Origin: a virus
Lineage: Duplodnaviria; Caudoviricetes
Direction: 5' to 3' (one strand)
DNA: 53,840 bases
Virus record (IMG/VR): IMGVR_UViG_3300047309_000142
Span: 1-53,840 of that record
The notes under the pieces are model-generated. The model saw nothing but the letters and a program-made list of their open reading frames with translations, had not been told where the DNA came from and made no database searches. Position numbers and translations under genes: made by a program. Shown here one piece after another: positions 20,030 to 53,118 of this stretch; position 1 is the stretch's first letter, and each line of letters starts with the position of its first letter.

Positions 20030-21748
20030 ATGACAACGAGAATAAAAGTAAGACACGACACATCTTCAAACTGGTCAAGTAATAATCCAGTTTTAGCTCT
20101 GGGAGAACCTGGCTTTGAGACTGATTCAAATCGTGTTAAGTATGGTGATGGCACCACAACTTGGAACAGTTTACCTTATACTGGAGCCGGTGCAAATTTA
20201 ACTGGTGATATCAACATTGGTGCTAATGCTGGACAAAGTAATCAAGCTTCAGAATCCATCGCTATTGGAAATGATGCGGGTAGATATAGCCAAGGATACC
20301 ACTCTATTGCTGTTGGTCAGGGTGCCGCTTATTATTACCAAAGTTGGTTAAGTATTGCGATTGGTAGAGGAGCTGGTGCATGCTGTCAAGATCACAGCGC
20401 AGTAGCTATTGGACACATAGCGGGCGCATGCAGTCAAGGACATGGCTCCATAGCTATAGGTCGAGGTGCAGGTAGATATAGTCAATATGCAGAATCTATC
20501 GCTATTGGTCATTATGGCTGCTCACAGTACTATCAGGGATATCATTCCATTGCTATTGGATCTGGCGCAGGTAATTGCTGCCAAGCTGCGTTAGCTGTAG
20601 CGATTGGACGCGCAGCTGGGGCATACAATCAAAGTAATAGTACAGTTGCAATTGGTCATTTGGCGGGACAATGTTGTCAACATTACGACGCTGTTGCAGT
20701 AGGTACTAGATCAGGTCGCTGGAATCAGGCAGCTGGAGCAGTAGCAGTTGGTCACAGTGCTGGAAATTGCTGTCAGCGTTGTCATGCAGTTGCGATAGGT
20801 GCTGATGCAGGTAATTACAATCAGGGTTGGGTAGCTACTGCTGTGGGCCGCAGTGCTGGCGCATGTAGCCAAAGAGGTGGTGCAACCGCAGTAGGTCACT
20901 TGGCGGGACAATGTTGCCAGGGATACGGTGCAGTTGCATTGGGTTCACATGCGGGACGTTATTATCAATCCTGCGAGTCAGTGGCAGTGGGGCAAAATGC
21001 AGGTAATTGCTGTCAGGGATACCATTCTGTGGCTATGGGATCTTACGCTGCTGCATGCGGTCAAAGAAGTTTAGCAATAGCTATAGGTCGTTCAGCTGGT
21101 GCATGTACTCAGAACATGAGTGCTATTGCAATTGGACACATTGCTGGACAACTGCAACAGGGTCAGGGTTCGGTGGCTATTGGCACAAGAGCAGGTAGAT
21201 ATTACCAGCAAACCTATGCGGTTGCAGTTGGACCACGCAGCGCTCAAAATTGTCAACAGAGTTATGCTGTTGCGGTTGGACCCTATGCTGCAGAAACGCC
21301 GTCAAATTATTACATAATTCAACATGCAGACGAGGATGGTTCTAACTATACCATTACGTTACAAAACAATTATGATATTTCAGTAATTAGACCTGGCATG
21401 TATTTAGATGGCAATGGTTATAGTATGGTATTGATTACTGCTATAAACGGAACACAAATTACTTTGGCAAGTACTCCTAATAATGGCAGCGTGTCGCAAA
21501 ACGGAATATTCTATGCTAGAGCCAAACAGGGTGCATCAAGTATTGCAATAGGTGCTTATGCAGCAAGATATACGCAGCATGCTAACAGTATTGTAATCAA
21601 TGCATCCGGTGCGGAAATAGCAAGTGCAGGACAAAATACCACTGTTATAAGTTCAGTTAGAACTGTAACAGGTGGTTCGGCACCAAGCGGGTTCTCACCA
21701 ACCTATTACAATCCTACAACTGGTGAATTGATAGTAGTAACAGCATAA
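20030..21748 (+). CDS. Tail fibre with Mtd-N-like domain and Cys/His-rich YadA-head-like repeats
   Basis: RIKVRHDT...NPVLALGEPGFETD...KYGDG.T.WNSLPY, then 22 tandem ~16-aa Qxxx(S/A)(I/V)A(I/V)GxxAGxxx repeats. Confidence 0.8.
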   Translation: MTTRIKVRHDTSSNWSSNNPVLALGEPGFETDSNRVKYGDGTTTWNSLPYTGAGANLTGDINIGANAGQSNQASESIAIGNDAGRYSQGYHSIAVGQGAAYYYQSWLSIAIGRGAGACCQDHSAVAIGHIAGACSQGHGSIAIGRGAGRYSQYAESIAIGHYGCSQYYQGYHSIAIGSGAGNCCQAALAVAIGRAAGAYNQSNSTVAIGHLAGQCCQHYDAVAVGTRSGRWNQAAGAVAVGHSAGNCCQRCHAVAIGADAGNYNQGWVATAVGRSAGACSQRGGATAVGHLAGQCCQGYGAVALGSHAGRYYQSCESVAVGQNAGNCCQGYHSVAMGSYAAACGQRSLAIAIGRSAGACTQNMSAIAIGHIAGQLQQGQGSVAIGTRAGRYYQQTYAVAVGPRSAQNCQQSYAVAVGPYAAETPSNYYIIQHADEDGSNYTITLQNNYDISVIRPGMYLDGNGYSMVLITAINGTQITLASTPNNGSVSQNGIFYARAKQGASSIAIGAYAARYTQHANSIVINASGAEIASAGQNTTVISSVRTVTGGSAPSGFSPTYYNPTTGELIVVTA

Positions 21749-31900: not shown

Positions 31901-32310
31901 GTAACTTAAGTACGGGTGGAACATTAACCGTAACCGGCAACACAACACAAACTGGTATATTGAAGCTGGGTTCGGTAATGGTAGAAGCATATTCCAATGT
32001 ATCTATCAGCACAAATACGCTTACCTTGAACCTAAGCACAGCTGGTATATTCAATGTTACCCTAAACTCAAATATTACAACGGTTTCACTAACCAACTAC
32101 CCCAGCAGTGCGGGTCAAGCAGCTAGCTTTATATTAATGTTAACTGCTGATGGTAATGCTAGATCCATTACGTGGCCTGCTGCATTTAGGTGGCCGGGAG
32201 GAACTGCGCCAACACCTACCAGTACGTTAAATAAAGTTGATGTGTTTGCGTTCTTCACACTGGATGGTGGTACTAACTGGCAAGCATTTATCTCAGGACA
32301 GAATCTATAA
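22966..32310 (+). CDS. Giant (3114 aa) Ala/Ser/Asn/Val-rich coiled-coil tail fibre
   Basis: TATAAATA at 22934. N-terminal FPxxPxxGD.Y....WTW; long tracts of NTVSNAVS / EIxNRQSASAxLExH repeats broken by globular domains; C-terminal 'WP...RWPGGTAP...VDVF.F.TLDGGTNW'. Confidence 0.85.
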   Translation: MALNFPITPAPGDLYTYAGKTWTWNGTGWQLVESTSALDNVNANLNNEISQRQAADLSINNVIDAVSAAVANEISARQSASAALESHINTVSAGLAAIDSGNISFTASSYPFTGNTQSLNTTTGTIVVTGGVGISGNLNVGGQFAANGNILPAQNATFNLGSPSLRWKSLYVTGSTIDIDGLTIGAANGQIIIPAANIGGVDINSAITTISNTVSAETSNRQSASAVIESHINTVSNTVSIVNAQLASIDTKLSNAVSALSADLRSAINAVSNQVSVTSTDLTSAKNNLLSAINVVSNAVSAETANRISADNALSVAAQAAINTISNAVSVVSVAAANATSIANAASAAVNVVSNAVSLETVNRISADNVLSVKIDAVSNTVSVETVNRQSASAVLESHINTVSNAVSVVSAAAASVESHVNTVSNAVSTVSAALISVSAQIENHVNLVSNAVSQVSVVAANAISMANVISQALSNEISNRQSASAVLEGHINTVSNAVSTVSAAVANAVSMINVVSNAVSVETAARTLASANLETHINTVSNAVSVVSVVAANAISMINVVSNTLSAEINDRKSVSQLLESHIDNVSAAVNTVSNALSVETANRVSADNALSVRVDSVYGVISSIVGGGAVSVTSADLISVSAVLESHINTVSNAVSVEIANRQSASAVLETHINTVSNAVSVVSVAAANATSIANAASNAVSVEVVNRQSASAALESHINTVSNAVSVVSAAAANATSIANAASNAVSVEIINRQSASAVLETHINTVSNAVSVVSVTAANAASIANAASNAVSVEVVNRQSASAVLESHIDTVSNAVSLVSVVAANAISTANAVSNALSAEILNRQSASAALESHINAVSNAVSVINASTGVTVGLYNNVANANTFSNTISGVTTIGFDSYTGFKVDNMGSNTVKVSLGSSFRTFKANGQSDLIAFGEDTLEFVAGNGISIATDPLATPKQLKIAVDDAQIYSAINGLSNAISAVSAAAALANTTANNASSIANAVSNAVSAEIGDRKSASAQLEGHINTVSNNVSVVSAAVANEASIRAAADILINNEISIVSAAVVSVDSHVNTVSAQLASVDTKLSNAISLETANRQSASAVLESHINAVSAAVNTVSNAISAETANRISSESGLSSRVDSVYNVLSSIVIGGGVSVTSADLNSVSTALESHINTVSNNVSVVSAAIANEASIRAAADTSINNAVSVVSAAAVSIETHVNTVSAQLASVDTKLSAAIVNAISNEASIRAAADTSINNAVSVVSAAAASIETHVNTVSAQLASVDTKLSTAVANLALDNLTDVQISSPVAGQLLTYNGINWINGAGITVSGGAGIGYWMQTPVITAASTENYFQIDTLGGTPNTSAQVLITQTVNNTTAVVAAWQSSALGRTVLDAGNYEFSVWMSTSNTGGTNTAQLDVYRVDPYSGGTVTMTGTGTSRTVTASNGAPFATITASGTMTSSSWLETPKGLYQITAKTSDTVVTIAVPAAYTNESAVSASVWNQLFTNPSFNLTSTNLIEYPFNTTQPSFSINKTTSLGVIVFATTSASRTITFSMDDGVTAAHLTTPWAVLHNELGGLQGGATNEYYHLTSAEYANINTASANLASIENHLSALDAAVSNETSARQAASVVLENQISVVSAAIVNEASIRAAQDASIYNAVSAVSAAVANEASIRAAQDASIYNAVSAVSAAVVNEASIRAAQDASINNSISVVSAALVSTNDRISGISSNLTSIDTKLSNAISAVSVAAQSAINTVSSNLDTEILNRQSASAVLEGHINTVSNAVSIVSAAAASIEAHVNTVSNAISAVSAAVANEASIRAAADASINNNTSIVSAAVANEASIRAAADTSINNSISVVSAALVSTNDRISGISSNLTSIDTKLSNAISNVTSQLQAASAALESHINTVSAAVNTVSNAVSVETANRISADNALSVRIDSISNQVSVTSADLVSAKNNLLSNINAVSNAVSVETANRISADNVLSVNINTVSNAVSIVSVAAANATSIANAVSNALSNEISNRRSADNALSVNINTVSNAVSIVSVAAANATSIANAASNAVSVEIANRQSASAALETHINTVSAAVNTVSNAVSVETANRISADNVLSVNINTVSNAVSIVSVAAANATSIANAASAAVNVVSNALSAEIVNRISADNALSNAVSATYAKKAGDTFTGPVVVSASLSVIGDLNVSGMLQVNAASLLEGGQINLAAAPSGTLAGPIGIDIYGNRVRIFETTGTSRGVYIDLTSAAAGVGTNLMAGGGAGSVASANFVSAVNALSNAISVVSAAAASVESHVNTVSNALSNEISNRQSASAALETHINAASNAASVVSAAVVSVSAVIETHVNTVSNAVSIVSVAAANAISMANVISNALSNEISNRISADNVLSANINTVSNAVSIVSVAAANATSIANAVSNALSNEISNRQSASAALETHINTVSNAVSIVSVAAANATSIANAASNAVSVEIINRQAASQALQVNIDAVSQAVSVVSVAVDRVSNAVSNEISNRQSASAALETHINTVSAAVNTVSNALSAEIVNRISADNALSANINTVSNAVSIVSVAAANATSIANAASAAVNVVSNALSNEISNRQSASAALETHINTVSNAVSVVSQAVSVVSVAAANATSIANAASIVAANATSIANAASVAAANATSIANAASNAVSVEIANRISADNAVSAAAQSAINTVSNAVSIVSVAAANATSIANAVSAAVNVVSNAVSIVSAAQLSTWNAVSNEISVRAAASAALEAHINTVSAAAAAGGGVASSNINNKVYTGLTTATTIIDTTAVANYRAVEYLATATDNTNSRYKASRITILTDNTNVYYSEYDTLYSNASYEVATFTANVATGNINLIAQGDSANVTVQLQKVYLGPGTTTGVAAGITSVSGGSNTQVQFNDAGTLSGSANLTFDKGTNVLTVTGNVAATNLSGTITTASQTNITTVGTLGALTVTGNVAAGNLSTGGTLTVTGNTTQTGILKLGSVMVEAYSNVSISTNTLTLNLSTAGIFNVTLNSNITTVSLTNYPSSAGQAASFILMLTADGNARSITWPAAFRWPGGTAPTPTSTLNKVDVFAFFTLDGGTNWQAFISGQNL
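24981..25380 (+). repeat. Near-identical intragenic DNA duplication with a 276-bp (2 x 46 aa) offset
   Basis: 24981-25103 and ~25257-25379 differ at only a few bases. Confidence 0.75.
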
Positions 32311-32819
32311 TGGCTAACTTTGCATTAGTTGAGAATGATACCATAACAGGCATTTATGATGATCTCCCTCAAAATTGGGGGCGTGTAAGTAACCTATATC
32401 TGTTATCAAATGAAACAGACCACTTAAAAACACTGGGTTGGTATAAAATCCGTAGACAGGATCCAGAATATGATCCTAATACAAAAATGCCGGGTAAATT
32501 GAGTTATATTTTTACTGGCACTGAGGTAATAGAAACAAATGAAATTTTGGATAGACCGCCCGAACCGCCAGCTAAAACTGCAGAACAATTGGCTGCCGAG
32601 GAACAATTAAGAATAGAAAACCAATGGGGTATTGTGCGTAGACAGCGAGATCAACTAATGCGTGATAATGACTGGAGGTATTTGCGTTATCAAAGACAGC
32701 AGAGAACTGGAACAGCAACCACTGATGACTTAGCAAAGGTAGATGCTTATATGCAGGCCTTGGCTAATATAACTAGTCAAGTTGATCCCTATAACATAAT
32801 TTGGCCCACATTAGAGTAA
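32310..32819 (+). CDS. Tail fibre assembly chaperone-like protein
   Basis: W..VRRQRDQLM...DW...YMQALANIT.Q.DP..I.WP C-terminal motif. Confidence 0.8.
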   Translation: MANFALVENDTITGIYDDLPQNWGRVSNLYLLSNETDHLKTLGWYKIRRQDPEYDPNTKMPGKLSYIFTGTEVIETNEILDRPPEPPAKTAEQLAAEEQLRIENQWGIVRRQRDQLMRDNDWRYLRYQRQQRTGTATTDDLAKVDAYMQALANITSQVDPYNIIWPTLE

Positions 32820-32820
32820 C

Positions 32821-35800
32821 ATGTCTGTACATAAAGCGTTATTAGCAATTCAATCGACGTCAAATATAGGTCCATTATTTCAGTGGGGTCTAAATACATC
32901 TGGTCAACTGGGTGACCGTACAACTACACTGCGTTCTAGTCCTGTGCAAGTTGGCACCAGTTATTGGAGCCAAGTAGCAACTGGTGACAGTGGTACCGTT
33001 GCTGTACGTGCTGATGGCGGATTATATGCGTGGGGGTTGCTGCCGTTTGGTGTAAGCTCATCGTCGCCTGTCGTATTAGCATCGGGCACGTGGTCAAAAG
33101 TTGCAATGGGTAATAACCATGCTTTAGCAATTAAGTCTGATGGGTCATTATGGTCCGTTGGTCTGGGCAGCAGTGGTCAATTAGGTGATACTGGTATATC
33201 GTATACACAAAGTTGGACACAAGTCGCGCATGGAACAAGTCATGCGCTGGCAATAAGAAATGACGGAGCATTATTTGTTTGGGGGTCCGATACCGATGGA
33301 GCATTGGGAGTAAACAGCACAACCGCTAGCTATAGCAGCCCAGTTCAATTGGGTACAGCAAGTTGGATTTATGTATCTGCTGAAAACAATTTTGGTCGTT
33401 CTATGGCAATAAGAAGTGATGGCGCATTATTTGGTTGGGGTTATAACCTTAATGGCGAGCTAGGAGACAACACTATTATAAGCAGGTCCAGTCCGGTGCA
33501 AATAGGTACCAGCAGTTGGACCGCTGTGAGTGCCGGTAGACCTAACACAATGGCTTTGCGAATAGATGGTGGATTATTTGCATGGGGGGCAAACACTAAC
33601 GGCGCAGTGGGCGATGGCACGGCTATCCCCAGATCCAGTCCAGTTCAAATAGGCACAAGCAGCTGGAGTAGTATTAGCGCAGGTTTCAATAATGGCGCAG
33701 CAATACGAATAGATGGTGCGTTGTTTGTTTGGGGGCAAAACACTAACGGGCAGATTGGTGATGGCACGGTTATCACCAAATCCAGTCCAGTTCAAATAGG
33801 CACTAGTAGCTGGACAAAAGTTTCTTCTGGAAGCACATATACAGCCGCTATTAGAAATGATGGTGCATTATTTACATGGGGCAACAATGCGAACGGCTGC
33901 CTTGGTGAATTTACTACTACCGCTGTGGCTGGTAATAGGTCAAGTCCGGTTCAAATAGGGACTAGCAGTTGGTCGCAGGTAAGGGCCGGGGTAAATAACC
34001 AGTCTACTTTTGCAATAAGAAATGATGGTGGTTTGTTTAGTTGGGGCCTGAATACTACTGGGCTATTAGGTCTTAACGACGCCATCAATCGCAGCAGTCC
34101 AGTGCAAATAGGCACCAGTAGTTGGACACAAATATGTACCCTTGCATATAGAACAATGCAGGGTATACTTACAAATGGTGTAATGTATGGTTGGGGGGCG
34201 GCTCCCATTGGAGACGGCACAGCAACCGGGTATTCCAGTCCTGTACTAGTAGCCGCATTGCCCGGAAGAGTTAGCCTTACGCAAATAGGCAGCAGCAGTT
34301 GGAGTCAGATAGCTGCTGGAGGCAATGTAAGTGCGGGCATAACAACGGCTAACACACTTTTTGTCTGGGGCGATAATTCTGTTAATCAACTGGGCGACTA
34401 CACTACTGCAAATAAAGCCTATCCCATACCTGTGGCTCCATTAAGTTGGTCCAGTGTCGCAAAAGGATTTTCACATTCCGCCGCAGTTCGCAGTGATGGC
34501 GCGTTATTTACGTGGGGTACGGCCACAACAGGGTGCTTGGGCGACAATGCCAACGTGTCGCGTAGCAGCCCGGTGCAGATAGGTAATAGCAGTTGGAGCA
34601 CTGTCAGTTGCGGTGTTTGCCACACCATGGCTATACGTTCAGACGGTACAGCTTGGGGCTGGGGCGCTGGCACTAACGGCTGCATTGGTGATGGAACTAC
34701 TACGAACAGATCTAGTCCAGTGCAAATAGGTACCGGTTTATGGAACAAGCTGATTGCATTCAATGCAAGTACATCTTCCATGGGTATACGTAGTGATGGT
34801 ACCTTATATACCTGGGGTATTAATACTTCAGCACAATTGGGGCTCAATGATATAGTTAATCGCAGTAGTCCTTCACAAGTTGGAACTAGCAGTTGGACAC
34901 AAATTGCTGGTTGGACTTTATCGGCAGCGGCAATAAGAACTGATGGCGGGTTATTTACGTGGGGTGTTGGTTCATCTGGACAATTGGGGCTAAATGATGC
35001 ACTACCTAGAAGTAGTCCAACACAAGTAGGTACCAGCAGTTGGACTCAGGTATCTATGGGTCCAAATACAATGCAAGCTATTAGAACAGATGGTGGATTA
35101 TTTACTACGGGCGCAGGCACTGGCGGATTGGGTGGAACTAATAATACTGCGCAATACTCTAGTCCAGTACAAATAGGAACTAGTAGTTGGACTTTAGTGA
35201 AAATTACAGGTAACAATTCTTATGCCATAAGAAGCGATGGAACATTATGGGCGTGGGGTGCATCTACTATATTAGGAAATAACACAGCGTCTAATGCCAG
35301 CAGCCCTGTGCAGATAGGTAGCGCAAGTTGGACACAATTATCCGCCAATACCGGCGGAGTGATAGGTGTCTACAATAATGTAGTTTATCTTTGGGGCAGT
35401 ACGAACGAATCGGGCAACGGACTAACCGATGCCGTAGTAACACCATACCCCTCAATAACGGTTAATACTAATATTAATAACAGTTTCCCCACCAGTTGGA
35501 CCAACGTAGCAGTAGGCCCCAGTCATATTGTAGCAATAGATAAAACCAGTTACAACGTCTATGGCTTTGGTTATAATAATAGTTCACAGCTGGCTCAAAC
35601 CACTGATTCGCAACAAAGCTGGTCGCAAATTGCACTAGGAGGCAACACTGGGTCTGGAAATTTTATTCTAGCTATTAGATCTGACGGTATACTGTATAGT
35701 TGGGGCATTAATGGCATGGGTCAGCTGGGAGACAATAGTTCAACAAACAGATCTAGTCCTGTACAGGTTACTGGCTTCAGCTGGACACAGGTTGCAGCCG

Positions 35801-38163
35801 GATCCAGATTCAGTGCTGGCATAAGATCAGATGGGAAATTGTTTACATGGGGCGGCAACGGTTATGGACAGTTGGGTTTAAATGATGTCACAACCACAAG
35901 ATCAGCACCAACACAGGTTGGCAACAGTAGTTGGACCCAAGTCACGGTGGCGGGCGGAACTAGTACTAATGCTGACCCTGGATTTGGAATGGCTTTACGC
36001 ACAGATGGCGGATTGTTTGTCTGGGGTGGTAATACAGATGGCCAGCTGGCACAGGGAGACACCACACACAGGTCTAGCCCTGTACAGGTAGGTACTAGCA
36101 GTTGGACTCAAATTTCAAATGGCTACAATGCTGCCTGCGCCATTAGAACAGATGGTGGATTATTTGCTTGGGGCACGGGTCTTTTATCTGCTACTAATAG
36201 ATCAAGTCCGGTTCAGGTGGGAACCAGCAGTTGGAGCCAAGTATCTGTTGGATATGATCATGTATTGGCTATTAATACCAGCGGCAGTTTGTATAGTGGA
36301 GGATTCAATGCTGCTGGGCAACTGGGACAAAATAATGTTACCACCAGTCAGGCTATTACGGCACTGGATAGTACAAATAGCTATGCTCAAGTTTCGGCTG
36401 GTGTTAGTATGAGTTTTGCAAGAAGAAACACCGGGGCATTATTTGCTTGGGGACTAAACACAAGTGGTCAACTAGGACTAAATGATTTAAATAACAGGTC
36501 CAGCCCAGTACAAATAGGTACTAGCAGTTGGGTTCAGTTACCTAATTCGGGTAGTGTTGGCACTATTGCCATGGTGGGTATATTACAGAACAATGCTTTA
36601 TATTCCTGGGGATCTAATGCAGATGGTGAATTGGGTATAAACTCAATCATTAATGCTAGATCAAGTCCGGCTCAAGTTGGTACTCAAGCTGGAACACAGA
36701 CAATACAACGATATAGGCCAACTCTAATAACTGGTAGCAGTTGGACACAAGTAGCTGCTGGTCCCAGTCATACAATGGCTATCAAAAACGATAATACACT
36801 ATGGGGCTGGGGCAGCTATGCATCATCTGATACCACTGGTACTTATTTTTGGTGGACCAGTATAAAGCAAAATAATAATACAACATTAGCTCTGCGTAGC
36901 GATGGCGCACTATTTGCTTGGGGGTATAACTTTAATGGGCGTCTAGGTGATGGAACAATAATAGATAGATCAAGTCCTGTACAAATAGGTACTAGTAGTT
37001 GGACGCAAATTTCAATGGGACTGACTCATTCCTTGGCCATAAGAAAGGATGGTGCGTTATTTTCTTGGGGCGCTAACGCACAGGGACAATTGGGACAAAA
37101 TGATGTAGTTCAGAGATCAAGCCCGGTGCAGGTAGGTACTAGTAGTTGGAGTCAAATAAATGCCTCAAACTCATTTTCCTGTGCAATAAGAACTGATGGG
37201 GGTCTATTTACGTGGGGGACAAATAATAACGGTGTATTTGGTGACAATACTGCCTCTGGTGCCTTTAGATCAAGTCCAGTTCAAATCGGCACCAGCAGCT
37301 GGAGTGCGGTCAGTGCAGGCCCCAGTTTTGCGGCCGCAATTAGGACTGACGGCGGTTTATTTACGTGGGGATCTGGCACTAACGGTGTCTTGGGGGGATC
37401 AAATGCAGGTACAGTTAGATCTAGCCCAGTGCAAGTAGGTACCAGTAGTTGGAGTCAAATTTCAGCCGGATTAAATTACTGTATCGCATTAAAAACTGAT
37501 TCTACTATTTGGACTTGGGGAGGTAATGGAAACGGTGAATTAGGGCAAAATAACACAATAGCTCTTTCAAGTCCAGTGCAGGTGGGAACTAGTAGTTGGA
37601 GTCAAATTTCAGCTAACAATGGTTTCATGGCCGCTATACGTACCGATGGGGGTTTATTTACCTGGGGGAATAATACTTCATCGCAGGGATATGGCGCCCT
37701 GATGCAAAATGATCTTGTTGCAAGATCCAGTCCAGTGCAAGTAGGTACTAGCAGTTTTACTCAGTTAAGTAGTGGCTACTCATCAAACGATTTGTCTGTA
37801 ATACGTATTGATGGTGCATTATTTGGTGCAGGTTGGAATACTAATGGTGAGCTGGGGTTAAATGATGTAAATGCAAGATCAAGCCCTGTGCAAGTTGGTT
37901 CATATCCTACTGCTCCATTTACTAGCACAGTGACACAAATGGGCGCGTTGAGTTATAAACAAGTGGCAGCTGGTCTTAATAATACCTACGCCATTAGCAA
38001 TACAAACAAATTATATTCCTGGGGTTCTAATACTTCGGGTATGATAGGCAACAGTCCAATACCTTTTGTTGGGTTAACGGTAAGTCCAGTTCAAATTGGC
38101 ACTAGCAACTGGATTACAGTAAGCGCAGGTCAAAGTCACGTGGGTGCAGTACGTTATCCATAA
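32821..38163 (+). CDS. RCC1/BLIP-II repeat protein, 35 repeats (five 7-blade propellers)
   Basis: ~49-aa repeat WxQVSAGxxHxxAIRxDGxLFxWGxNxxGQLGxxxxxxRSSPVQIGTSS, counted by hand. Confidence 0.9.
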   Translation: MSVHKALLAIQSTSNIGPLFQWGLNTSGQLGDRTTTLRSSPVQVGTSYWSQVATGDSGTVAVRADGGLYAWGLLPFGVSSSSPVVLASGTWSKVAMGNNHALAIKSDGSLWSVGLGSSGQLGDTGISYTQSWTQVAHGTSHALAIRNDGALFVWGSDTDGALGVNSTTASYSSPVQLGTASWIYVSAENNFGRSMAIRSDGALFGWGYNLNGELGDNTIISRSSPVQIGTSSWTAVSAGRPNTMALRIDGGLFAWGANTNGAVGDGTAIPRSSPVQIGTSSWSSISAGFNNGAAIRIDGALFVWGQNTNGQIGDGTVITKSSPVQIGTSSWTKVSSGSTYTAAIRNDGALFTWGNNANGCLGEFTTTAVAGNRSSPVQIGTSSWSQVRAGVNNQSTFAIRNDGGLFSWGLNTTGLLGLNDAINRSSPVQIGTSSWTQICTLAYRTMQGILTNGVMYGWGAAPIGDGTATGYSSPVLVAALPGRVSLTQIGSSSWSQIAAGGNVSAGITTANTLFVWGDNSVNQLGDYTTANKAYPIPVAPLSWSSVAKGFSHSAAVRSDGALFTWGTATTGCLGDNANVSRSSPVQIGNSSWSTVSCGVCHTMAIRSDGTAWGWGAGTNGCIGDGTTTNRSSPVQIGTGLWNKLIAFNASTSSMGIRSDGTLYTWGINTSAQLGLNDIVNRSSPSQVGTSSWTQIAGWTLSAAAIRTDGGLFTWGVGSSGQLGLNDALPRSSPTQVGTSSWTQVSMGPNTMQAIRTDGGLFTTGAGTGGLGGTNNTAQYSSPVQIGTSSWTLVKITGNNSYAIRSDGTLWAWGASTILGNNTASNASSPVQIGSASWTQLSANTGGVIGVYNNVVYLWGSTNESGNGLTDAVVTPYPSITVNTNINNSFPTSWTNVAVGPSHIVAIDKTSYNVYGFGYNNSSQLAQTTDSQQSWSQIALGGNTGSGNFILAIRSDGILYSWGINGMGQLGDNSSTNRSSPVQVTGFSWTQVAAGSRFSAGIRSDGKLFTWGGNGYGQLGLNDVTTTRSAPTQVGNSSWTQVTVAGGTSTNADPGFGMALRTDGGLFVWGGNTDGQLAQGDTTHRSSPVQVGTSSWTQISNGYNAACAIRTDGGLFAWGTGLLSATNRSSPVQVGTSSWSQVSVGYDHVLAINTSGSLYSGGFNAAGQLGQNNVTTSQAITALDSTNSYAQVSAGVSMSFARRNTGALFAWGLNTSGQLGLNDLNNRSSPVQIGTSSWVQLPNSGSVGTIAMVGILQNNALYSWGSNADGELGINSIINARSSPAQVGTQAGTQTIQRYRPTLITGSSWTQVAAGPSHTMAIKNDNTLWGWGSYASSDTTGTYFWWTSIKQNNNTTLALRSDGALFAWGYNFNGRLGDGTIIDRSSPVQIGTSSWTQISMGLTHSLAIRKDGALFSWGANAQGQLGQNDVVQRSSPVQVGTSSWSQINASNSFSCAIRTDGGLFTWGTNNNGVFGDNTASGAFRSSPVQIGTSSWSAVSAGPSFAAAIRTDGGLFTWGSGTNGVLGGSNAGTVRSSPVQVGTSSWSQISAGLNYCIALKTDSTIWTWGGNGNGELGQNNTIALSSPVQVGTSSWSQISANNGFMAAIRTDGGLFTWGNNTSSQGYGALMQNDLVARSSPVQVGTSSFTQLSSGYSSNDLSVIRIDGALFGAGWNTNGELGLNDVNARSSPVQVGSYPTAPFTSTVTQMGALSYKQVAAGLNNTYAISNTNKLYSWGSNTSGMIGNSPIPFVGLTVSPVQIGTSNWITVSAGQSHVGAVRYP

Positions 38164-38217: not shown

Positions 38218-39945
38218 ATGCACGAAATAGATCAAATGTTGCAGTTGCAACTAGAAGGCCGCCATGCCGAAGCACGAGCACTGTCAGATAAATTAGAAGC
38301 TATAGGCCCACAAAAAATACAGGATCCCAAAGGGCAAACAACCCAAGACATTTGGATGCGTCACTGTTTTAATCGCGGTTGGTTCTTAATACAGGACGGT
38401 GACTATCAAAAAGGCAGTCAACTACTGGAAAACGGACGTTTTCTCAATGTTTACGGCAATCAACCCTTGATGACTAACGCGCCAATTTATAATCCACAAC
38501 AACACGACATCAAGGGCAAAGGCATCATTATAAGTTTAGAGGGTGGTTATGGAGATGAGATCATACATGCTAGATTTGCTCAAAGCTTTAAAAAGCAAGG
38601 TGCTGCACGAGTTTATCTAGCCGCAGCACCGGAAATGGTCAGTTTGTTCAGCAGAATTGATGGCGTAGATGGTGTCATATTACGTAACCAAGCCAATACA
38701 GTGGCGCATGATTTCTGGGTACCAGGGTTCAGTGCAGGTTGGGTAGCTGGTCATACGTTTGAAGATTTTCCCGGCGATCCATATTTGACTGCTAGACCAG
38801 AATCCGTTGACGTTTGGAAAAACATTATTAATAGTGACAAAATAAAAGTGGGTATACGCTGGGCAGGTAATCCTAAATTTGAACATCAACAGTTTAGGCG
38901 TTTCCCCACAGACTTTATCACTAACTTAACCAAATATTCAGAATTACAACTGTACAGCCTACAACGCGATCACAATACTATACAGTTGCCAGAAGGTGTG
39001 CAGGATCTGCAACACTTAATGTTAAGCTGGGAAGATACTGCCGCAGCGATTATGAATTTGGATCTTGTAATTACCAGTTGTACCAGTGTCGCGCATTTAA
39101 GTGCAGCATTGGGTAAACAGACTTGGGTCATTGTGCCTTGCTTGCCCTATCATACCTGGACTTGGAAAGCACCTACATCCGATACCAGTCCCTATTATAA
39201 ATGCGTTAAACTATTTAGACAACGCAAGTATGGCAGTTGGAACGATCCCTGGCAGCGCCTTTATACAGAGTTGGAATCTAAGTTCAATTTAGCACACGTA
39301 GACATGCCCAATGCAGATCGTGAAAGCAAAAAACTTAATTTAGGCTGTGGCTTTAAAAAGTTCAAGGGATATCTTAATGTTGATAAGAGCTCGCTAGTAA
39401 AGCCGGATCAAACAGTAGATCTTAATGTTACACCCTGGCCCTGGCGCGACAATGAATTTACACATATAGTAGCCAAGGACATACTGGAACATTTAGGTGA
39501 AACACAAACTGATTTTGTTAACGTGATCAAGGAAATGTATAGGATCAGTGAGAATGGTGCGATATGGGAAATTCAAGTGCCGCATTGGCGTTGTGATACA
39601 GCATTGGATGATCCTGGTCATGTAAGGTTTATTACACTGGGTATGATGCATCTGTTTAATCAACAGCGTGTAATGAACAGGATCAAACAGCGCGAAAGCG
39701 ATAGTATTTTGGCCTTTGAACATGATATCGACATAGAAGTTTGTGATACACAATTTGTTTATACCGAACCCTGGCAGCATAAAATACGTAACAATGAGGT
39801 CACCTCAGATGAACTTAATTACGCATTAAATCATTTTAACAATGTAGCTCTTAGTATGATTATGTTGATACAGGTACATAAGCCCGGCAGATATGACGCA
39901 GCAGAATTGACTCAGGAACTAAACAAGGTAAATAGTGAACTATAA
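38218..39945 (+). CDS. GT9-like (GT-B) glycosyltransferase fused to a class I SAM methyltransferase-like domain
   Basis: EGGYGDEI..ARF, KVGIRWAGNP, DTAAAIMNLDLVITSCTSVAHLSAALGK; then KLNLGCG...GYLNVD...DILEHL. Confidence 0.85.
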   Translation: MHEIDQMLQLQLEGRHAEARALSDKLEAIGPQKIQDPKGQTTQDIWMRHCFNRGWFLIQDGDYQKGSQLLENGRFLNVYGNQPLMTNAPIYNPQQHDIKGKGIIISLEGGYGDEIIHARFAQSFKKQGAARVYLAAAPEMVSLFSRIDGVDGVILRNQANTVAHDFWVPGFSAGWVAGHTFEDFPGDPYLTARPESVDVWKNIINSDKIKVGIRWAGNPKFEHQQFRRFPTDFITNLTKYSELQLYSLQRDHNTIQLPEGVQDLQHLMLSWEDTAAAIMNLDLVITSCTSVAHLSAALGKQTWVIVPCLPYHTWTWKAPTSDTSPYYKCVKLFRQRKYGSWNDPWQRLYTELESKFNLAHVDMPNADRESKKLNLGCGFKKFKGYLNVDKSSLVKPDQTVDLNVTPWPWRDNEFTHIVAKDILEHLGETQTDFVNVIKEMYRISENGAIWEIQVPHWRCDTALDDPGHVRFITLGMMHLFNQQRVMNRIKQRESDSILAFEHDIDIEVCDTQFVYTEPWQHKIRNNEVTSDELNYALNHFNNVALSMIMLIQVHKPGRYDAAELTQELNKVNSEL

Positions 39946-40537
39946 ATTTACCGTAGAGTTTGATCCGGAAAATGTGCAGGCAAACATGATGCACATTTTC
40001 AAACAATTTGGTGTGCCTAATACAGTGATAGAAATCGGCGTATATGAAGGTCGCACTACATGTTGGATGGCAGAAGTACTAACACCACACAACAGCGACC
40101 TTCAAATACATGCAATAGATCCACATGATCAAAGCATTGATATTCACGAGAGCATGGAGGCTGCGCATGATACATTCTTACAAAATATACAGCACAGTCC
40201 CTGCAAAAACATAAACTATATTAGAAAGCGTTCAGAAGATGCATTAGTGGATTTAATTACACAGTCTGTATCTGCAGAATTCATATACGTAGATGGAGAT
40301 CATTTTGCCAGTACTGTATTAACTGACCTAGTGTTAGGATACAAACTTTTAAAAGCGGGCGGCGTCATGTTGTGCGACGATGCTACCGAATGGCGCTTCA
40401 CTGACAAAAACAAAGAAACTAATCCACAATACGCACCACGCATGGCTATAGAAAACTTCATTCAATGCTATTGGCACAAAGTTAAACCTATATACTTGCC
40501 CTGTATGACACAAACTGCATTTATAAAATTATGTTAA
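39935..40537 (+). CDS. Class I SAM methyltransferase (Methyltransf_24-like)
   Basis: VIEIGVYEGRT, FIYVDGDH, LLKAGGVMLCDD. Confidence 0.85.
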   Translation: MNYKFTVEFDPENVQANMMHIFKQFGVPNTVIEIGVYEGRTTCWMAEVLTPHNSDLQIHAIDPHDQSIDIHESMEAAHDTFLQNIQHSPCKNINYIRKRSEDALVDLITQSVSAEFIYVDGDHFASTVLTDLVLGYKLLKAGGVMLCDDATEWRFTDKNKETNPQYAPRMAIENFIQCYWHKVKPIYLPCMTQTAFIKLC

Positions 40538-41235
40538 ACTTATTTCGTAGAGACAGTATAGATGTAGAAAGCGCCTACATTATTACCCTATTAGGCAATG
40601 ACAGCAGTGAGCGATTTTCGCAGCGATGTCAGCAAAGTTGTAGCTCGGTTGACATGCCCTATAAGATTTGGGCTGCATATAACGGCATAGAAAATCCTAT
40701 TAAAGAACCAGAGCATAGCAAAAATGCCAGTATCATGAGCATGATCAAAATAACAGATCATTACTTAACTCGTGGCGAGGTAGCATGTGCATTAAGTCAC
40801 ATAAGTCTATGGGCGCATTGTGCAGCTATAGACCAGCCCATAGTAATATTGGAACATGATGCGGTCATGGTTCAGGCATTTAGACAACATCAAAGTTACA
40901 ACAGCATAGTATATTTGGGCGGCAGCGAATGGGCCGAACAGGGTTGGAAGGTCTATCCCATACCACCGCATGCAAGTGAAGGACCCAATTATCATTTTAT
41001 TTGCAGAGCACACGCTTATAGCATTGATCCTGCAATGGCTAAAAATTTGCTGAGTTACGTATTAAAAATGGGCATCAGTGCACCACTGGACATAATGTTA
41101 CGTGCGGATCTGTTTCATATAACGCATCAGGGTTTATATGCTTATGATATCAGCACGGACAAGTCCACGACTACAATTAAAGCACGACCCAGCGAGGGTA
41201 GAACCACACGCAGGAACGACGCGCTGCGCGAATGA
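40531..41235 (+). CDS. Glycosyltransferase family 25
   Basis: GEVACALSHISLW, VILEHDA, AHAYSI.P..AK.LL. Confidence 0.85.
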   Translation: MLNLFRRDSIDVESAYIITLLGNDSSERFSQRCQQSCSSVDMPYKIWAAYNGIENPIKEPEHSKNASIMSMIKITDHYLTRGEVACALSHISLWAHCAAIDQPIVILEHDAVMVQAFRQHQSYNSIVYLGGSEWAEQGWKVYPIPPHASEGPNYHFICRAHAYSIDPAMAKNLLSYVLKMGISAPLDIMLRADLFHITHQGLYAYDISTDKSTTTIKARPSEGRTTRRNDALRE

Positions 41236-49372: not shown

Positions 49373-51001
49373 ATGGCCATAGTAAGTATTAGCCAAATCA
49401 AACATAGACGAGGCAGTTTAGACGATCTACCGCAATTAGCCAGCGGTGAATTAGGTTGGGCCATAGATGCTCGAAGATTGTTTATAGGCAATGGTGCAAC
49501 TACAGAAGGTGCGCCCGAGATAGGCAATACGGAAATCCTAACTGAATACAGCGATGTTCTAGCCTTATTGTATACCTATACCTACAAGGGAACAAGCGCA
49601 GGTTACACAGCTAGTACTGGTATAGACGCAAATGATCCCACAGTTCGTAGTATACAACAAAAGCTGGACGACTTTGTCAGCGTAAAAGACTTTGGTGCTA
49701 CTGGTGATGGTACTACAGATGATACTGCCGCTATAAACAGAGCACTGTATGATCTTTATTGCAGAAGCGGTAACCTAATTAGTCCAACCCAAGTAAGACG
49801 TGCTTTGTATTTTCCAGCCGGTACTTATATTGTATCAGCTGAGGTTAAAATTCCTCCCTATGCGACTTTGCGTGGTGACGGTTTAGACTGCACAGTAATA
49901 AAACAAAGTACAGCATCCACAGTTGTAGCTAAAGTCAGTGACAGTTTACAGCAGGTTGACACTAATCAGGGCAATAACAGTGCAACAAAAAGTCGATATA
50001 TTGAAATTAGTGGCATCACATTTAAACAAACAGATGCACAAGCTGGTGATCCTGCGTCTTACACAAACATTGAAGATGTATTTTTAATTAGTACAGGATC
50101 ACAAATATCATTCACTGATTGTAAGTTTGAAGGTCCTTTTGTTAATCATTCAACAACAAGTTATATTAACTTGCCCAATCCACAAGGTACTAGTAACAAA
50201 GCCTGCTTTAGTTTGAATTCTCCTACTGCCGCTAATGGCACAACCTATAATGTTTCATTTAAGCGTTGTGAATTTAGCAGCCATACCTACGGAGCTAGAA
50301 TCAACAATACAGTCTACAACGTAGTATTTGATCAATGTTACTTTGCTTACCTGTACAGCGGTGTGCAGGTTGGAACCGATCCACGCGGAGTAAAAGTATG
50401 TGGTAGTTTGTTTGACAGCATTTATGGTCAAGCAGTTTACAGTTCGGCACCAGGTACTGCTTGTGTATACAACACATATCTTGACGTGGGAACAAACTTT
50501 TTAGGTATTAATTCGGTCACTGCGGTCACTGCCGTAGTTGAATTCAATGCGAATGATTGTTCAAGTTTAGGTGACTATTTTGCACGAGTCGATGCAGCCA
50601 CCAGTACTTACCCACGCATTCAATATAACAGTTATGTGGATTATTCCGTAATTGCAGGAAAGTTTATTCAATACGGTAACCACTACGAAGAATCTGGAAA
50701 ACAGGCGGTCATTGGTGACAATGCCAGTGGTACTTTGGTCAGTTTTGATTCAACCAAAGTAAGTGGTGCTTTCATTGAGTATGTATTAACCAGAGGTACG
50801 ACCGCAGCAAGAACTGGCACCATATATCTAAGCGTATTTAACGGAAATTCGGCAGTCAACGATGTTTCGCGAAATAATGGTACTAATCCAGATGTTACTT
50901 TTTCAACTAGCATGGTTAGCACTACCTGTAATCTTACATATTCTTCCGGGAGTAGTCTCGGTGCAACAACAATAAAATACAGAATTAAATATTTCCTATA
51001 G
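49373..51001 (+). CDS. Tailspike-like protein: Mtd-N-like domain plus pectate-lyase-type beta-helix
   Basis: QIKHRRG...LASGELGWAID.RRLFIG; VSVKDFGATGDGTTDDTAAINRA...LYFPAGTY; TAAATA at 49343. Confidence 0.85.
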   Translation: MAIVSISQIKHRRGSLDDLPQLASGELGWAIDARRLFIGNGATTEGAPEIGNTEILTEYSDVLALLYTYTYKGTSAGYTASTGIDANDPTVRSIQQKLDDFVSVKDFGATGDGTTDDTAAINRALYDLYCRSGNLISPTQVRRALYFPAGTYIVSAEVKIPPYATLRGDGLDCTVIKQSTASTVVAKVSDSLQQVDTNQGNNSATKSRYIEISGITFKQTDAQAGDPASYTNIEDVFLISTGSQISFTDCKFEGPFVNHSTTSYINLPNPQGTSNKACFSLNSPTAANGTTYNVSFKRCEFSSHTYGARINNTVYNVVFDQCYFAYLYSGVQVGTDPRGVKVCGSLFDSIYGQAVYSSAPGTACVYNTYLDVGTNFLGINSVTAVTAVVEFNANDCSSLGDYFARVDAATSTYPRIQYNSYVDYSVIAGKFIQYGNHYEESGKQAVIGDNASGTLVSFDSTKVSGAFIEYVLTRGTTAARTGTIYLSVFNGNSAVNDVSRNNGTNPDVTFSTSMVSTTCNLTYSSGSSLGATTIKYRIKYFL

Positions 51002-51480: not shown

Positions 51481-53118
51481 ATGAGTCAACAAATACAAGT
51501 CACAAAAAGAAATGGCAGTAAGGAATCACTAGAGCTAGAAAAACTTCACAAAGTAGTTTTTTGGGCAACGGAAAACCTAAATAATGTAAGCGCAAGTGAA
51601 GTTGAAATTAAAAGTCATATACAGTTTTACAACGGAATAAAAACAAGAGATATTCAGGAAACACTGATCAAAAGTGCAGCAGACTTAATTGATGAAGATC
51701 ATCCTAATTACCAATATGTAGCCGGTAGATTAATTAACTATAATTTGCGTAAGGAAGTATACGGTGATATTACTCCATGGCCACTAGTTAAACTAATAAA
51801 ACGCAATGTAGAGATAGGTTACTATGACAGCGAAATATTAGACAGTTATAGCACGGACGAACTATCAGAATTAGGCGAATACATTGATCATGAGCGTGAT
51901 ATGAAGTTTACGTATGCTGCAATGGAACAATGGCGTGGCAAATACTTGGTAAAAAATCGTGTTACCAGTGAGATGTATGAAACACCACAAGTGGCATATA
52001 TGCTGATCGCAGCCACACTTTTTGCAAAATACCCCAAAGAAACCAGACTGCGTTGGGTAAAAGATTATTACGATGCGGTTAGCCAACACTTCATTAGTTT
52101 GCCTACCCCCATGATGGCAGGTCTACGTACACCGCAACGACAGTTCAGTAGTTGTGTACTAATTGAAACCGACGACAGTTTGGATAGCATCAGTGCTACT
52201 AGCGCCAGCATCGTTCGATACGTAAGCCAAAAAGCAGGGATTGGCATTGGTGGTGGTCGTATTCGAGCATTAGGATCACCAATACGCAAGGGCGATGCTT
52301 TTCACACAGGGGTAATACCATTTTACAAAGTTTTCCAAGCAGCTACTCGCAGTTGCAGTCAGGGTGGTGTACGCAATGGTGCAGCTACATTGTACTATCC
52401 AATTTGGCACTTGGAAGTTGAGGATTTGTTGGTATTGAAAAACAATAAAGGTACCGAAGACAATCGCATTCGCCACATGGATTATGGTGTTCAATTTAAT
52501 AAATTGATGTATGAGCGTTTGCTTACTGGTGGCGATATTACGTTATTCAGTCCACATGATGTACCTGAAATGTATGATGCTTTCTTTGCAGATCAGGAGC
52601 GATTTAAAGAACTATATGAACGTGCCGAACGCAATACAAAACTAAAAAAGAAAACAGTTCGTGCACTAGATTTATTTTCGGCATTCATGAACGAGCGCAA
52701 GGATACAGGGCGCATTTATTTGATGAACGTAGATCATGCCAATACTCACAGCAGCTTCCTATCCGAACATGCACCAGTTAGGATGTCCAATCTTTGCTGT
52801 GTAGATGGTGACACTCAAGTAACGTTTATGCACGAGGACGGAAAAATAGAGCAGATGTCAGTATCAAGTGCTGTTGAAAGATTCGAATTGGGAAATTTGA
52901 CAAATTCAAAGATTAAGAGTTTTGTGGCTGGAAAAGTCTCTTGGGAAGATATTTCAGCAGCGATTAAAACGAAAACGGTTACCGAACTTTACGAGATTGC
53001 GGATGAGTGCGGAAACATTTTGAGATGCACCGGTGATCATTTAGTTTTTACCAAAAATCGAGGGTATGTTCGTGCTGATGAATTAAGAGAAACCGACGAG
53101 CTATGCGTTGAAATTTGA
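51481..53118 (+). CDS. nrdA: Ribonucleotide reductase class Ia alpha, N-terminal fragment (aa 1-439) fused to a split N-intein
   Basis: ATP cone VTKRNG, ETPQ, PTP.MAG.RT..RQFSSC, SCSQGGVRNG, then SNLC, intein sequence and a stop. Confidence 0.95.
   Translation: MSQQIQVTKRNGSKESLELEKLHKVVFWATENLNNVSASEVEIKSHIQFYNGIKTRDIQETLIKSAADLIDEDHPNYQYVAGRLINYNLRKEVYGDITPWPLVKLIKRNVEIGYYDSEILDSYSTDELSELGEYIDHERDMKFTYAAMEQWRGKYLVKNRVTSEMYETPQVAYMLIAATLFAKYPKETRLRWVKDYYDAVSQHFISLPTPMMAGLRTPQRQFSSCVLIETDDSLDSISATSASIVRYVSQKAGIGIGGGRIRALGSPIRKGDAFHTGVIPFYKVFQAATRSCSQGGVRNGAATLYYPIWHLEVEDLLVLKNNKGTEDNRIRHMDYGVQFNKLMYERLLTGGDITLFSPHDVPEMYDAFFADQERFKELYERAERNTKLKKKTVRALDLFSAFMNERKDTGRIYLMNVDHANTHSSFLSEHAPVRMSNLCCVDGDTQVTFMHEDGKIEQMSVSSAVERFELGNLTNSKIKSFVAGKVSWEDISAAIKTKTVTELYEIADECGNILRCTGDHLVFTKNRGYVRADELRETDELCVEI
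52798..53115 (+). mobile_element. N-terminal half (106 aa) of a naturally split intein
   Basis: Block A CVDGDTQV, block B LRCTGDHLVFTKNRGYVRADEL, then a stop with no C-terminal HN motif. Confidence 0.9.

Follow-up and report, generated by a model that had tools for sequence, protein, structure and literature searches.

The window analysed here is the whole of an uncultured virus record (IMG/VR record IMGVR_UViG_3300047309_000142; Duplodnaviria, Caudoviricetes), a stretch of 53,840 nucleotides (nt) with a CheckV completeness of 15%. Its plus strand carries a gene for a protein of 1780 amino acids (aa) that consists almost entirely of RCC1-type repeats, here called blades. As an earlier first-pass annotation, made from the sequence alone, had stated, this gene is located right after a giant fibre gene and the gene of a fibre chaperone, which matched phrog_9017 and phrog_4912 respectively (Table 1). 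The stop codon of the 169-aa chaperone-like open reading frame (ORF) lies directly before the start codon of the RCC1 gene.

Only RCC1-type families were matched by the 1780-aa protein in Pfam. WD40_RLD (PF25390) was found in nine stretches with a score of 935.6 bits (cut-off 150) and RCC1 (PF00415) in 25 stretches with 631.9 bits (cut-off 21.7). In addition, RCC1_2 (PF13540) was found in 21 stretches with 479.6 bits (cut-off 22). Three families of the PHROGs database, all named 'regulator of chromosome condensation', also matched. Both its sequence and the predicted fold of its modules place the protein in the RCC1-like repeat family.

Parsing by hand and with a hidden Markov model of the blade divided the protein into 34 full blades and two half blades, one at each terminus, which together make 35 (Table 1). 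The strands of a blade are named A to D from the inside of the ring to the outside, with the consensus 'W-x-Q-V-S-A-G' for strand A, 'x-x-A-I-R-x-D-G' for strand B, 'L-F-x-W-G' for strand C and 'S-S-P-V-Q-I-G' for strand D. This naming was derived from loop lengths and from the blades of BLIP-II, which are assumed here to lack the outer strand. Twenty-eight of the blades form four runs of seven, which start at aa 132, 543, 934 and 1345 (positions 33214, 34447, 35620 and 36853), and exactly seven blades are left over if the two terminal halves are counted as one. Each run is followed by a linker and then by a divergent blade, at aa 494, 893, 1308 and 1712 (positions 34300, 35497, 36742 and 37954). 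All of these starts and counts agree with the first-pass annotation. Its further description of seven regular repeats per run held for the number seven and not for the regularity, as the last blade in every run diverges as strongly as the left-over blades do (mean similarity 0.14 at position 7). The blades in front of runs 1, 3 and 4 (aa 91, 893 and 1308) measure only 37–41 aa and have no outer 'SSPVQ' strand (strand D). A segment resembling strand D, which continues into a normal joint to the next strand A, is present in linkers 1, 3 and 4.

Table 1. Features of the RCC1 gene and its two upstream neighbours. Hub and satellite parts are named after the proposed architecture; P0002 is the closest relative of the protein.
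Feature	Position (nt)	Strand	Basis or remark	Identity to P0002 (aa)
RCC1-blade ORF, 1780 aa	32821..38163	+	Open frame; only RCC1 blades and a 17-residue N-terminal segment	
N-terminal half blade (strands C, D), aa 18-48	32872..32964	+	Parse; putative hub closure with the C-terminal half	
Hub blades 1 and 2, aa 49-90 and 91-131	32965..33213	+	Parse; blade 91 truncated (41 aa, without outer strand)	
Satellite ring 1, seven blades, aa 132-480	33214..34260	+	Parse	
Linker 1, aa 481-493	34261..34299	+	Outer-strand-like, with the usual joint to the next blade	
Hub blade, aa 494-542	34300..34446	+	Parse; ring membership least certain of the hub blades	
Satellite ring 2, seven blades, aa 543-880	34447..35460	+	Parse; seventh blade (aa 837) very divergent	
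Linker 2 (aa ~881-892) and truncated hub blade, aa 893-933	35461..35619	+	Parse	Blade 893, 98%
Satellite ring 3, aa 934-1295	35620..36705	+	Parse; exchange cassette versus relative	Seven blades, 53-74%
Linker 3 (aa 1296-1307) and truncated hub blade, aa 1308-1344	36706..36852	+	Conserved island between cassettes	Linker 3, 75%; blade 1308, 95%
Satellite ring 4, aa 1345-1699	36853..37917	+	Parse; exchange cassette versus relative	Seven blades, 60-72%
Linker 4 (aa 1700-1711), hub blade aa 1712-1762 and C-terminal half blade aa 1763-1780 (strands A, B)	37918..38160	+		Linker 4 and last 1.5 blades, 100%
Upstream neighbour, 169 aa, tail-fibre assembly chaperone-like	32310..32819	+	PF16778, 25.7 bits (just under the 26.6 cut-off); phrog_4912, E 9.6e-9	
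Giant ORF, 3114 aa	22966..32310	+	C-terminal ~110 residues match tail-fibre phrog_9017, E 5.8e-18	

Since 35 blades recur here with a period of eight, they can be grouped in three ways. In the grouping of the first-pass annotation, a hub would consist of the joined termini and blades 49, 91, 494, 893, 1308 and 1712. In a second grouping, shifted by one blade, the hub would consist of the joined termini and blades 49, 435, 837, 1237, 1646 and 1712, and in a third there would be four eight-blade rings with three blades left over. The first grouping, which implies a nested architecture of hub and satellites, is regarded as the best explanation, with a probability of about 0.65. According to it, the protein would contain five seven-bladed propellers of the RCC1 type that are not strung in a row. 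One hub ring would be assembled from seven distant pieces, and the four complete rings of Table 1 would be spliced into it. Rings 1, 3 and 4 would each interrupt a hub blade after its third strand and before its outermost one, a splice that leaves a truncated hub blade before the insert and a strand-like linker after it. By analogy with pairs of relatives described below, it is proposed that linker 1 supplies the outer strand that hub blade 91 lacks. The chain termini are complementary half blades, which would pair to complete the seventh hub blade. The hub would be a conserved scaffold and the inserted rings would be exchangeable modules, and rings 3 and 4 appear to have been replaced between two otherwise near-identical phages. 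This reading leans mainly on such exchange cassettes and on insertions and deletions (indels) among relatives, and less on three-dimensional models.

The cassettes were recognized in the one close relative of the protein, P0002, which has 1783 aa, is 81% identical and is encoded on a viral contig (locus L001) with 90% nt identity to the window over 12.3 kb. In 150-nt windows, the flanks and most of the gene are 91–99% identical in the two phages, and the identity falls to 57–69% over aa ~943–1290 and to 63–71% over aa ~1345–1690. A single window of 89% identity separates the two divergent stretches. At the protein level, the cassette in ring 3 (aa ~941–1279) and that in ring 4 (aa ~1352–1683) are each 64% identical to P0002, and in the alignment each of them begins just within the first strand A of its run and ends just ahead of the last strand D. 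These two cassettes are of ring size and have the ring borders of the first grouping; they have been exchanged or have diverged, and the blade between them has been kept. The hub blades are the most conserved parts of the protein between both phages. A conserved single blade between two cassettes would be hard to fit with a shift by one blade or with eight-blade rings. This evidence comes from one pair of phages.

Similar evidence was obtained from the wider family, for which each of two homology searches returned more than 5000 matches with E <= 0.001. The lengths of the homologues cluster near 730, 1090, 1450 and 1790 aa, although the lists were chosen by length window and score and are thus biased. 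Among 317 of these proteins, close pairs of unequal length were picked by shared 9-mers. P0020 and P0094 (75–88% identical) showed length differences of 362 aa and 705 aa, and P0041 and P0061 (85–93% identical) a difference of ~379 aa. In the 705-aa case, a blade that is intact in P0094 (51 aa) is cut to 45 aa after strand C in P0020, where it is followed by 14 blades and then by the orthologous next blade. Likewise, an intact 57-aa blade of P0061 corresponds to an orthologous blade of P0041 that is cut to 42 aa and followed by seven blades and an extra D-like strand. From these intact and cut orthologous blades it would follow that a ring enters a host blade after its strand C and before its strand D, and that the truncated blade is part of the host ring, as required by the grouping with blades 91, 893 and 1308 in the hub. 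The 362-aa indel was placed between two similar blades and its position is ambiguous. The indels of seven or 14 blades in these pairs agree with the predicted differences by multiples of seven blades.

The same pattern was seen when truncated blades and extra strands were matched as opening and closing brackets over the 317 proteins. Exactly seven blades were enclosed in 104 of the 377 matched pairs, and multiples of seven made up 29% of the pairs compared with a mean of 7% (maximum 10.8%) in 200 shuffles. BLAST alignments of the 1780-aa protein with relatives of 21–28 blades gave many registers with near-equal scores and resolved no orthologous blades. A search of representatives based on P0170, a full-length homologue of 1085 aa and 21 blades, returned mostly giant proteins of up to 7235 aa and no colinear alignment rows. 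Many homologues, among them P0220, P0219, P0200 and P0141, are perfectly regular arrays of 13 or 20 full blades with a half blade at either end. P0220, for example, has 14 blades in 727 aa (half blade, 13 blades, half blade). These arrays have no truncated blade and no linker. P0135 (1093 aa) was parsed as an N-terminal strand C only, three blades, a truncated blade, seven blades, an extra strand, three blades, an extra strand, six blades and a half blade. This order of blades reads as three rings nested inside one another rather than side by side.

The RCC1 gene is also the most mosaic stretch of the 12-kb region that is common to the window and L001. Mosaicism is usual for host-range determinants. 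The fibre and chaperone genes next to it and the diversification of its cassettes suggest a receptor-binding role, and the 1780-aa protein may be an adhesin or receptor-binding protein of the virion that touches the host surface with its outer rings. The 'multivalent receptor-binding head' of the first-pass annotation would be a possible reading, drawn from gene order and cassette exchange only. Among the relatives, those from bacteria contain type IX secretion sorting, FN3 and LamG domains, which together with the exchange of cassettes favour a putative surface-binding virion protein. Neither a virion-attachment domain nor a known fibre family was found in the 1780-aa protein with Pfam and PHROGs, which weighs against this assignment. 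Residues 2–17 (32824–32871) hold an N-terminal helix (aa 2–9 in the model) with the motif 'L-L-A-I-Q', which is also present in P0170 and, in a looser form, in P0135. The protein may be attached to the virion through this helix.

Irrespective of how it folds, the protein could instead be no receptor-binding part of the virion and act inside the cell or on DNA, an explanation that is considered unlikely but has to be taken seriously. PHROGs files the matching families under DNA, RNA and nucleotide metabolism, and a DNA-ordering role has been proposed for the RCC1-like proteins of jumbo phage phAPEC6, as a speculation. The same paper states that no function information is available for prokaryotes, and the family names in PHROGs are carried over from eukaryotic RCC1. 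The lack of a recognized virion-attachment domain would also suit an intracellular protein, whereas three other proteins of the window open with a fibre N-terminus (Mtd_N, the N-terminal domain of the major tropism determinant). However, the position of the gene directly after those of a fibre and a fibre chaperone, its mosaicism and the secretion and adhesion domains of its cellular relatives all speak against this explanation.

The three Mtd_N proteins are encoded at 13325–18406, 20030–21748 and 49373–51001, and one of them also contains a pectate-lyase-like domain; thus, the phage seems to carry several different fibres or spikes. The 3114-aa giant ORF contains no Pfam family but has long internal repeats, with many repeated BLASTN matches to L001 at ~27.8–31.2 kb. 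Directly downstream of the RCC1 gene (38218–41235) are an ORF of 575 aa that contains a methyltransferase-like stretch, a methyltransferase of 200 aa and a family 25 glycosyltransferase, which could be a glycan-modifying set beside the fibre genes. A ribonucleotide reductase large subunit is encoded at 51481–53118. Its ORF ends early relative to the barrel profile and has a weak C-terminal match to the intein-splicing family PF14890 (31.2 bits, cut-off 35.8).

The fold was examined with two AlphaFold2 (AF2) models, one of aa 1–933 of the 1780-aa protein and one of P0170. The first was run with a 50-row alignment and reached a mean predicted local distance difference test score (pLDDT) of 76 and a predicted template modelling score (pTM) of 0.49, with high confidence over aa 130–435 and 494–840. 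All 50 structural matches listed for it fell on one ring at ~489–851, some of them extending to 878. The match with UVR8 (4dnv_A) on 489–851 had a Z score of 40.1 and a root mean square deviation (rmsd) of 3.3 Å over 340/370 residues. Other matches were RCC1 (1a12_A, Z 32.5) and BLIP-II (3qi0_A, Z 21.8). The best matches outside the RCC1 family were Rsa4 and ODA16, which are eight-bladed. A ring border lies at linker 1 in this model, and this border excludes a plain sequential arrangement. On the other hand, hub blade 494 was placed within the next ring, contrary to the grouping of the first-pass annotation. A ring with blade 494 may fit the partition shifted by one blade, or it may represent eight blades squeezed together in a truncated construct.

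P0170 was parsed as a half blade, three blades, a truncated blade, seven blades, a linker, a truncated blade, seven blades, a linker, a blade and a half blade. Its model had a mean pLDDT of 75.9. UVR8 aligned with residues 232–601 (Z 29.5, rmsd 2.4 Å, 355/369 residues), a range which comprises exactly the seven blades after the first truncated blade and excludes that blade. The second RCC1-like domain (RLD2) of HERC2 (7q41_C) aligned with residues 21–228 over 208 residues with an rmsd of 1.5 Å. In the model, these N-terminal 4.5 blades form a partial ring that is not continued by the blades that follow. Alignments to a sequential ring over 19/20–387 gave rmsd values of 14–15 Å. Solved multi-propeller chains gave no low-rmsd match on two rings of the model, and rows that covered two rings had rmsd values of 18–27 Å. 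The best match in BFVD was a 1077-aa phage RCC1 protein with a template modelling (TM) score of 0.33–0.34, which is uninformative on architecture. A complex prediction of hub pieces (aa 1–131, 481–542 and 881–1344, each with 1696–1780 as partner) gave scores of 0.33, 0.39 and 0.30 compared with 0.16 for a control, and is neither for nor against hub closure. In these predicted models, closure of a seven-blade ring was found for single modules only. The models appear to support one inserted ring with the borders of the first-pass annotation.

Several results weigh against the nested architecture. In neither AF2 model is the hub closed, and the pTM of the P0170 model is only 0.44. In the model of aa 1–933, the pLDDT falls below 50 at 439–492 and 849–933, which are the joints themselves, and the ring at ~489–851 takes in hub blade 494. 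In P0170, the strand-like linkers at 591–600 and 995–1011 have a pLDDT below 50 and form no strands, and the second inserted ring aligns only at rmsd values of 7.5–7.8 Å. When single-ring structures were aligned across the P0170 insert (ranges starting at 17–22 and ending at 533–1057, 183–226 residues, rmsd 2.3–4.6 Å), no more than ~18 residues were gained beyond the N-terminal part. Blade 494 has an outer-strand-like segment of its own and linker 2 is hardly strand-like, so that the splice of ring 2 would differ from the other three. The hub blades are each divergent and form no group in the blade comparison. Mean similarity was 0.23 between hub blades, 0.24 between hub and satellite blades and 0.39 between satellite blades, and the expectation that hub blades would group apart was not confirmed. 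The pairing of truncated blades with extra strands is noisy, as 539 extra strands and 152 truncated blades were left unmatched. Besides the copy in L001, no further close relative of the gene was found in the searches, all other matches being at most 46% identical. Finally, a third divergent patch between the two phages, at aa ~238–318 (33532–33774), covers two blades inside ring 1 (67–71% aa and 70–83% nt identity) and ignores the ring borders; it may be a short gene-conversion tract.

Shared motifs, recognized by eye, bear on the position of blade 494. The seventh blades at aa 435, 837 and 1237 have a common 'N-[GN]-x-x-Y-x-W-G' turn, and blades 494, 1308 and 1712 have 'Q-[IV]-A-A-G' and 'N-[TK]-L' in common. 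These motifs hint that the counterpart of blade 837 is blade 1237, which lies in an exchanged cassette, and that the counterpart of blade 494 is the conserved blade 1308. As a whole, the repeat pattern reported in the first-pass annotation was confirmed and its interpretation was partly supported. The discontinuous hub with four inserted rings agrees with the blade arithmetic, the cassettes, the indels of seven and 14 blades, the boundaries that had been claimed and the one inserted ring in the P0170 model, but no confident model was obtained for closure of the hub.

Some of these difficulties would disappear if the inserted rings were real and the seven left-over blades formed only an open arc, or flexible single-blade spacers, with the termini unjoined. 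Such an arrangement would account for the lack of a closed hub in both models, for the lowest pLDDT values on left-over blades and linkers, for the single extra strand or so that is picked up across the insert, and for the mutual dissimilarity of the hub blades. It is nevertheless judged improbable. The left-over count is exactly seven in the 1780-aa protein as well as in P0170, and fourteen in P0135, and the two terminal half blades, although complementary, would have no partner. In addition, the blades that flank an insert are neighbours within one ring in relatives that lack the insert, and no parts of the protein are more conserved between both phages than the hub blades.

Contiguous rings in a row, with the terminal blades serving as caps, have a still smaller chance of being correct. 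They could be four eight-blade rings (aa 91–480, 494–880, 893–1295 and 1308–1699) joined by true linkers, or seven-blade rings shifted by one blade in which the truncated blades open a ring. The ring of the aa 1–933 model that ends at 851 or 878 and includes blade 494 is in favour of such an arrangement, and Rsa4 and ODA16 as top matches outside the RCC1 family could point to eight blades. However, eight-blade rings would leave three blades over in the 1780-aa protein and five in P0170, and neither remainder can close. Lengths and indels in the family advance in steps of ~355 aa, which corresponds to seven blades and not to eight. The conserved single blade between the cassettes fits neither version, the truncated blade has an intact orthologue within the host ring of relatives, and the P0170 ring at 232–601 excludes the truncated blade. 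Five ordinary seven-blade rings in sequence, each closed by two start strands and two end strands, can practically be dismissed in spite of 35 being 5 x 7 and of the many relatives that are regular linker-free arrays, such as P0220, because rings would then meet within tight hairpins of perfect regularity, the four linkers and three truncated blades would lie at arbitrary places within rings, both AF2 models have ring borders at linkers, the P0170 alignments over 19/20–387 are poor and the exchange cassettes would be out of phase.

If the nested architecture is correct, one type of repeat suffices to build large, rigid and branched binding proteins, and the one insertion known for WD40 triple propellers is far exceeded. 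With its ring-sized units of exchange, the protein would lend itself as a scaffold on which binding modules are swapped. Nesting would also explain the thousands of large phage and bacterial RCC1-repeat proteins whose sizes increase in seven-blade steps. Proteins that are now annotated as 'regulator of chromosome condensation' would then represent a new class of host-recognition proteins in large uncultured phages. A broader view, which stands at about even odds, is that RCC1 blades serve phages as a plug-in system, in which host-range ring cassettes are spliced into a conserved hub and rings carry further rings to form a branched propeller tree. Such a tree would be an architecture not described for any fold.

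Among known proteins, UVR8, human RCC1, the RLDs of HERC2 and RPGR belong to the same repeat family and form the same seven-blade ring as found here. They have one contiguous ring per domain, whereas the 1780-aa protein has 35 blades and no other domain, and its rings are apparently spliced. Its likeness to RCC1 and UVR8 does not imply a function in nucleotide exchange or photoreception. BLIP-II is also a ring of the RCC1 family and has short blades, which are taken here to consist of three strands and ~40 aa each. The hub blades 91, 893 and 1308, with 37–41 aa, are of similar size. In contrast to the 1780-aa protein, BLIP-II is a single small secreted ring that inhibits beta-lactamase, and the short blades found here are better explained as split blades with the fourth strand located after the insert.

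In the RCC1-like ring of UBR5, blades host large inserted domains and the first blade is completed by two C-terminal strands (PMC10830417). The hub proposed here would be closed in the same way, by pairing of terminal half blades. UBR5 (8p82_A) aligned with the hub part of the P0170 model (25–626) with a Z score of 9.7 over 155 residues and an rmsd of 3.4 Å. The inserts of UBR5 are unrelated domains (UBA and dSBB), whereas those proposed here are further RCC1 rings.

In the literature searched, no paper was found on RCC1 rings inserted into RCC1 rings or on such phage proteins, in agreement with the first-pass annotation, to which the nested architecture was not known from described proteins. 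The insertion of a propeller is not unprecedented in principle, however, since in solved WD40 triple propellers one propeller interrupts another between strands c and d. DDB1, CPSF160 and SF3B3 are reportedly triple WD40 propellers of the same nested type. Trm734 is a parallel in chain topology. One of its propellers (BPA) accommodates a complete second one (BPB) between its strands c7 and d7, and the last propeller includes the N-terminal strand of the chain (PMC6847430). The same logic would apply to the 1780-aa protein, with its truncated blade, its insert and an additional outer strand. Trm734 has no sequence relationship to it, and the likeness is one of topology and not of membership. 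Trm734 is composed of WD40 blades in three propellers with a single insertion, whereas four insertions are proposed here for 35 RCC1 blades in five rings. Also, relatives of the 1780-aa protein such as P0135 appear to nest their rings recursively.

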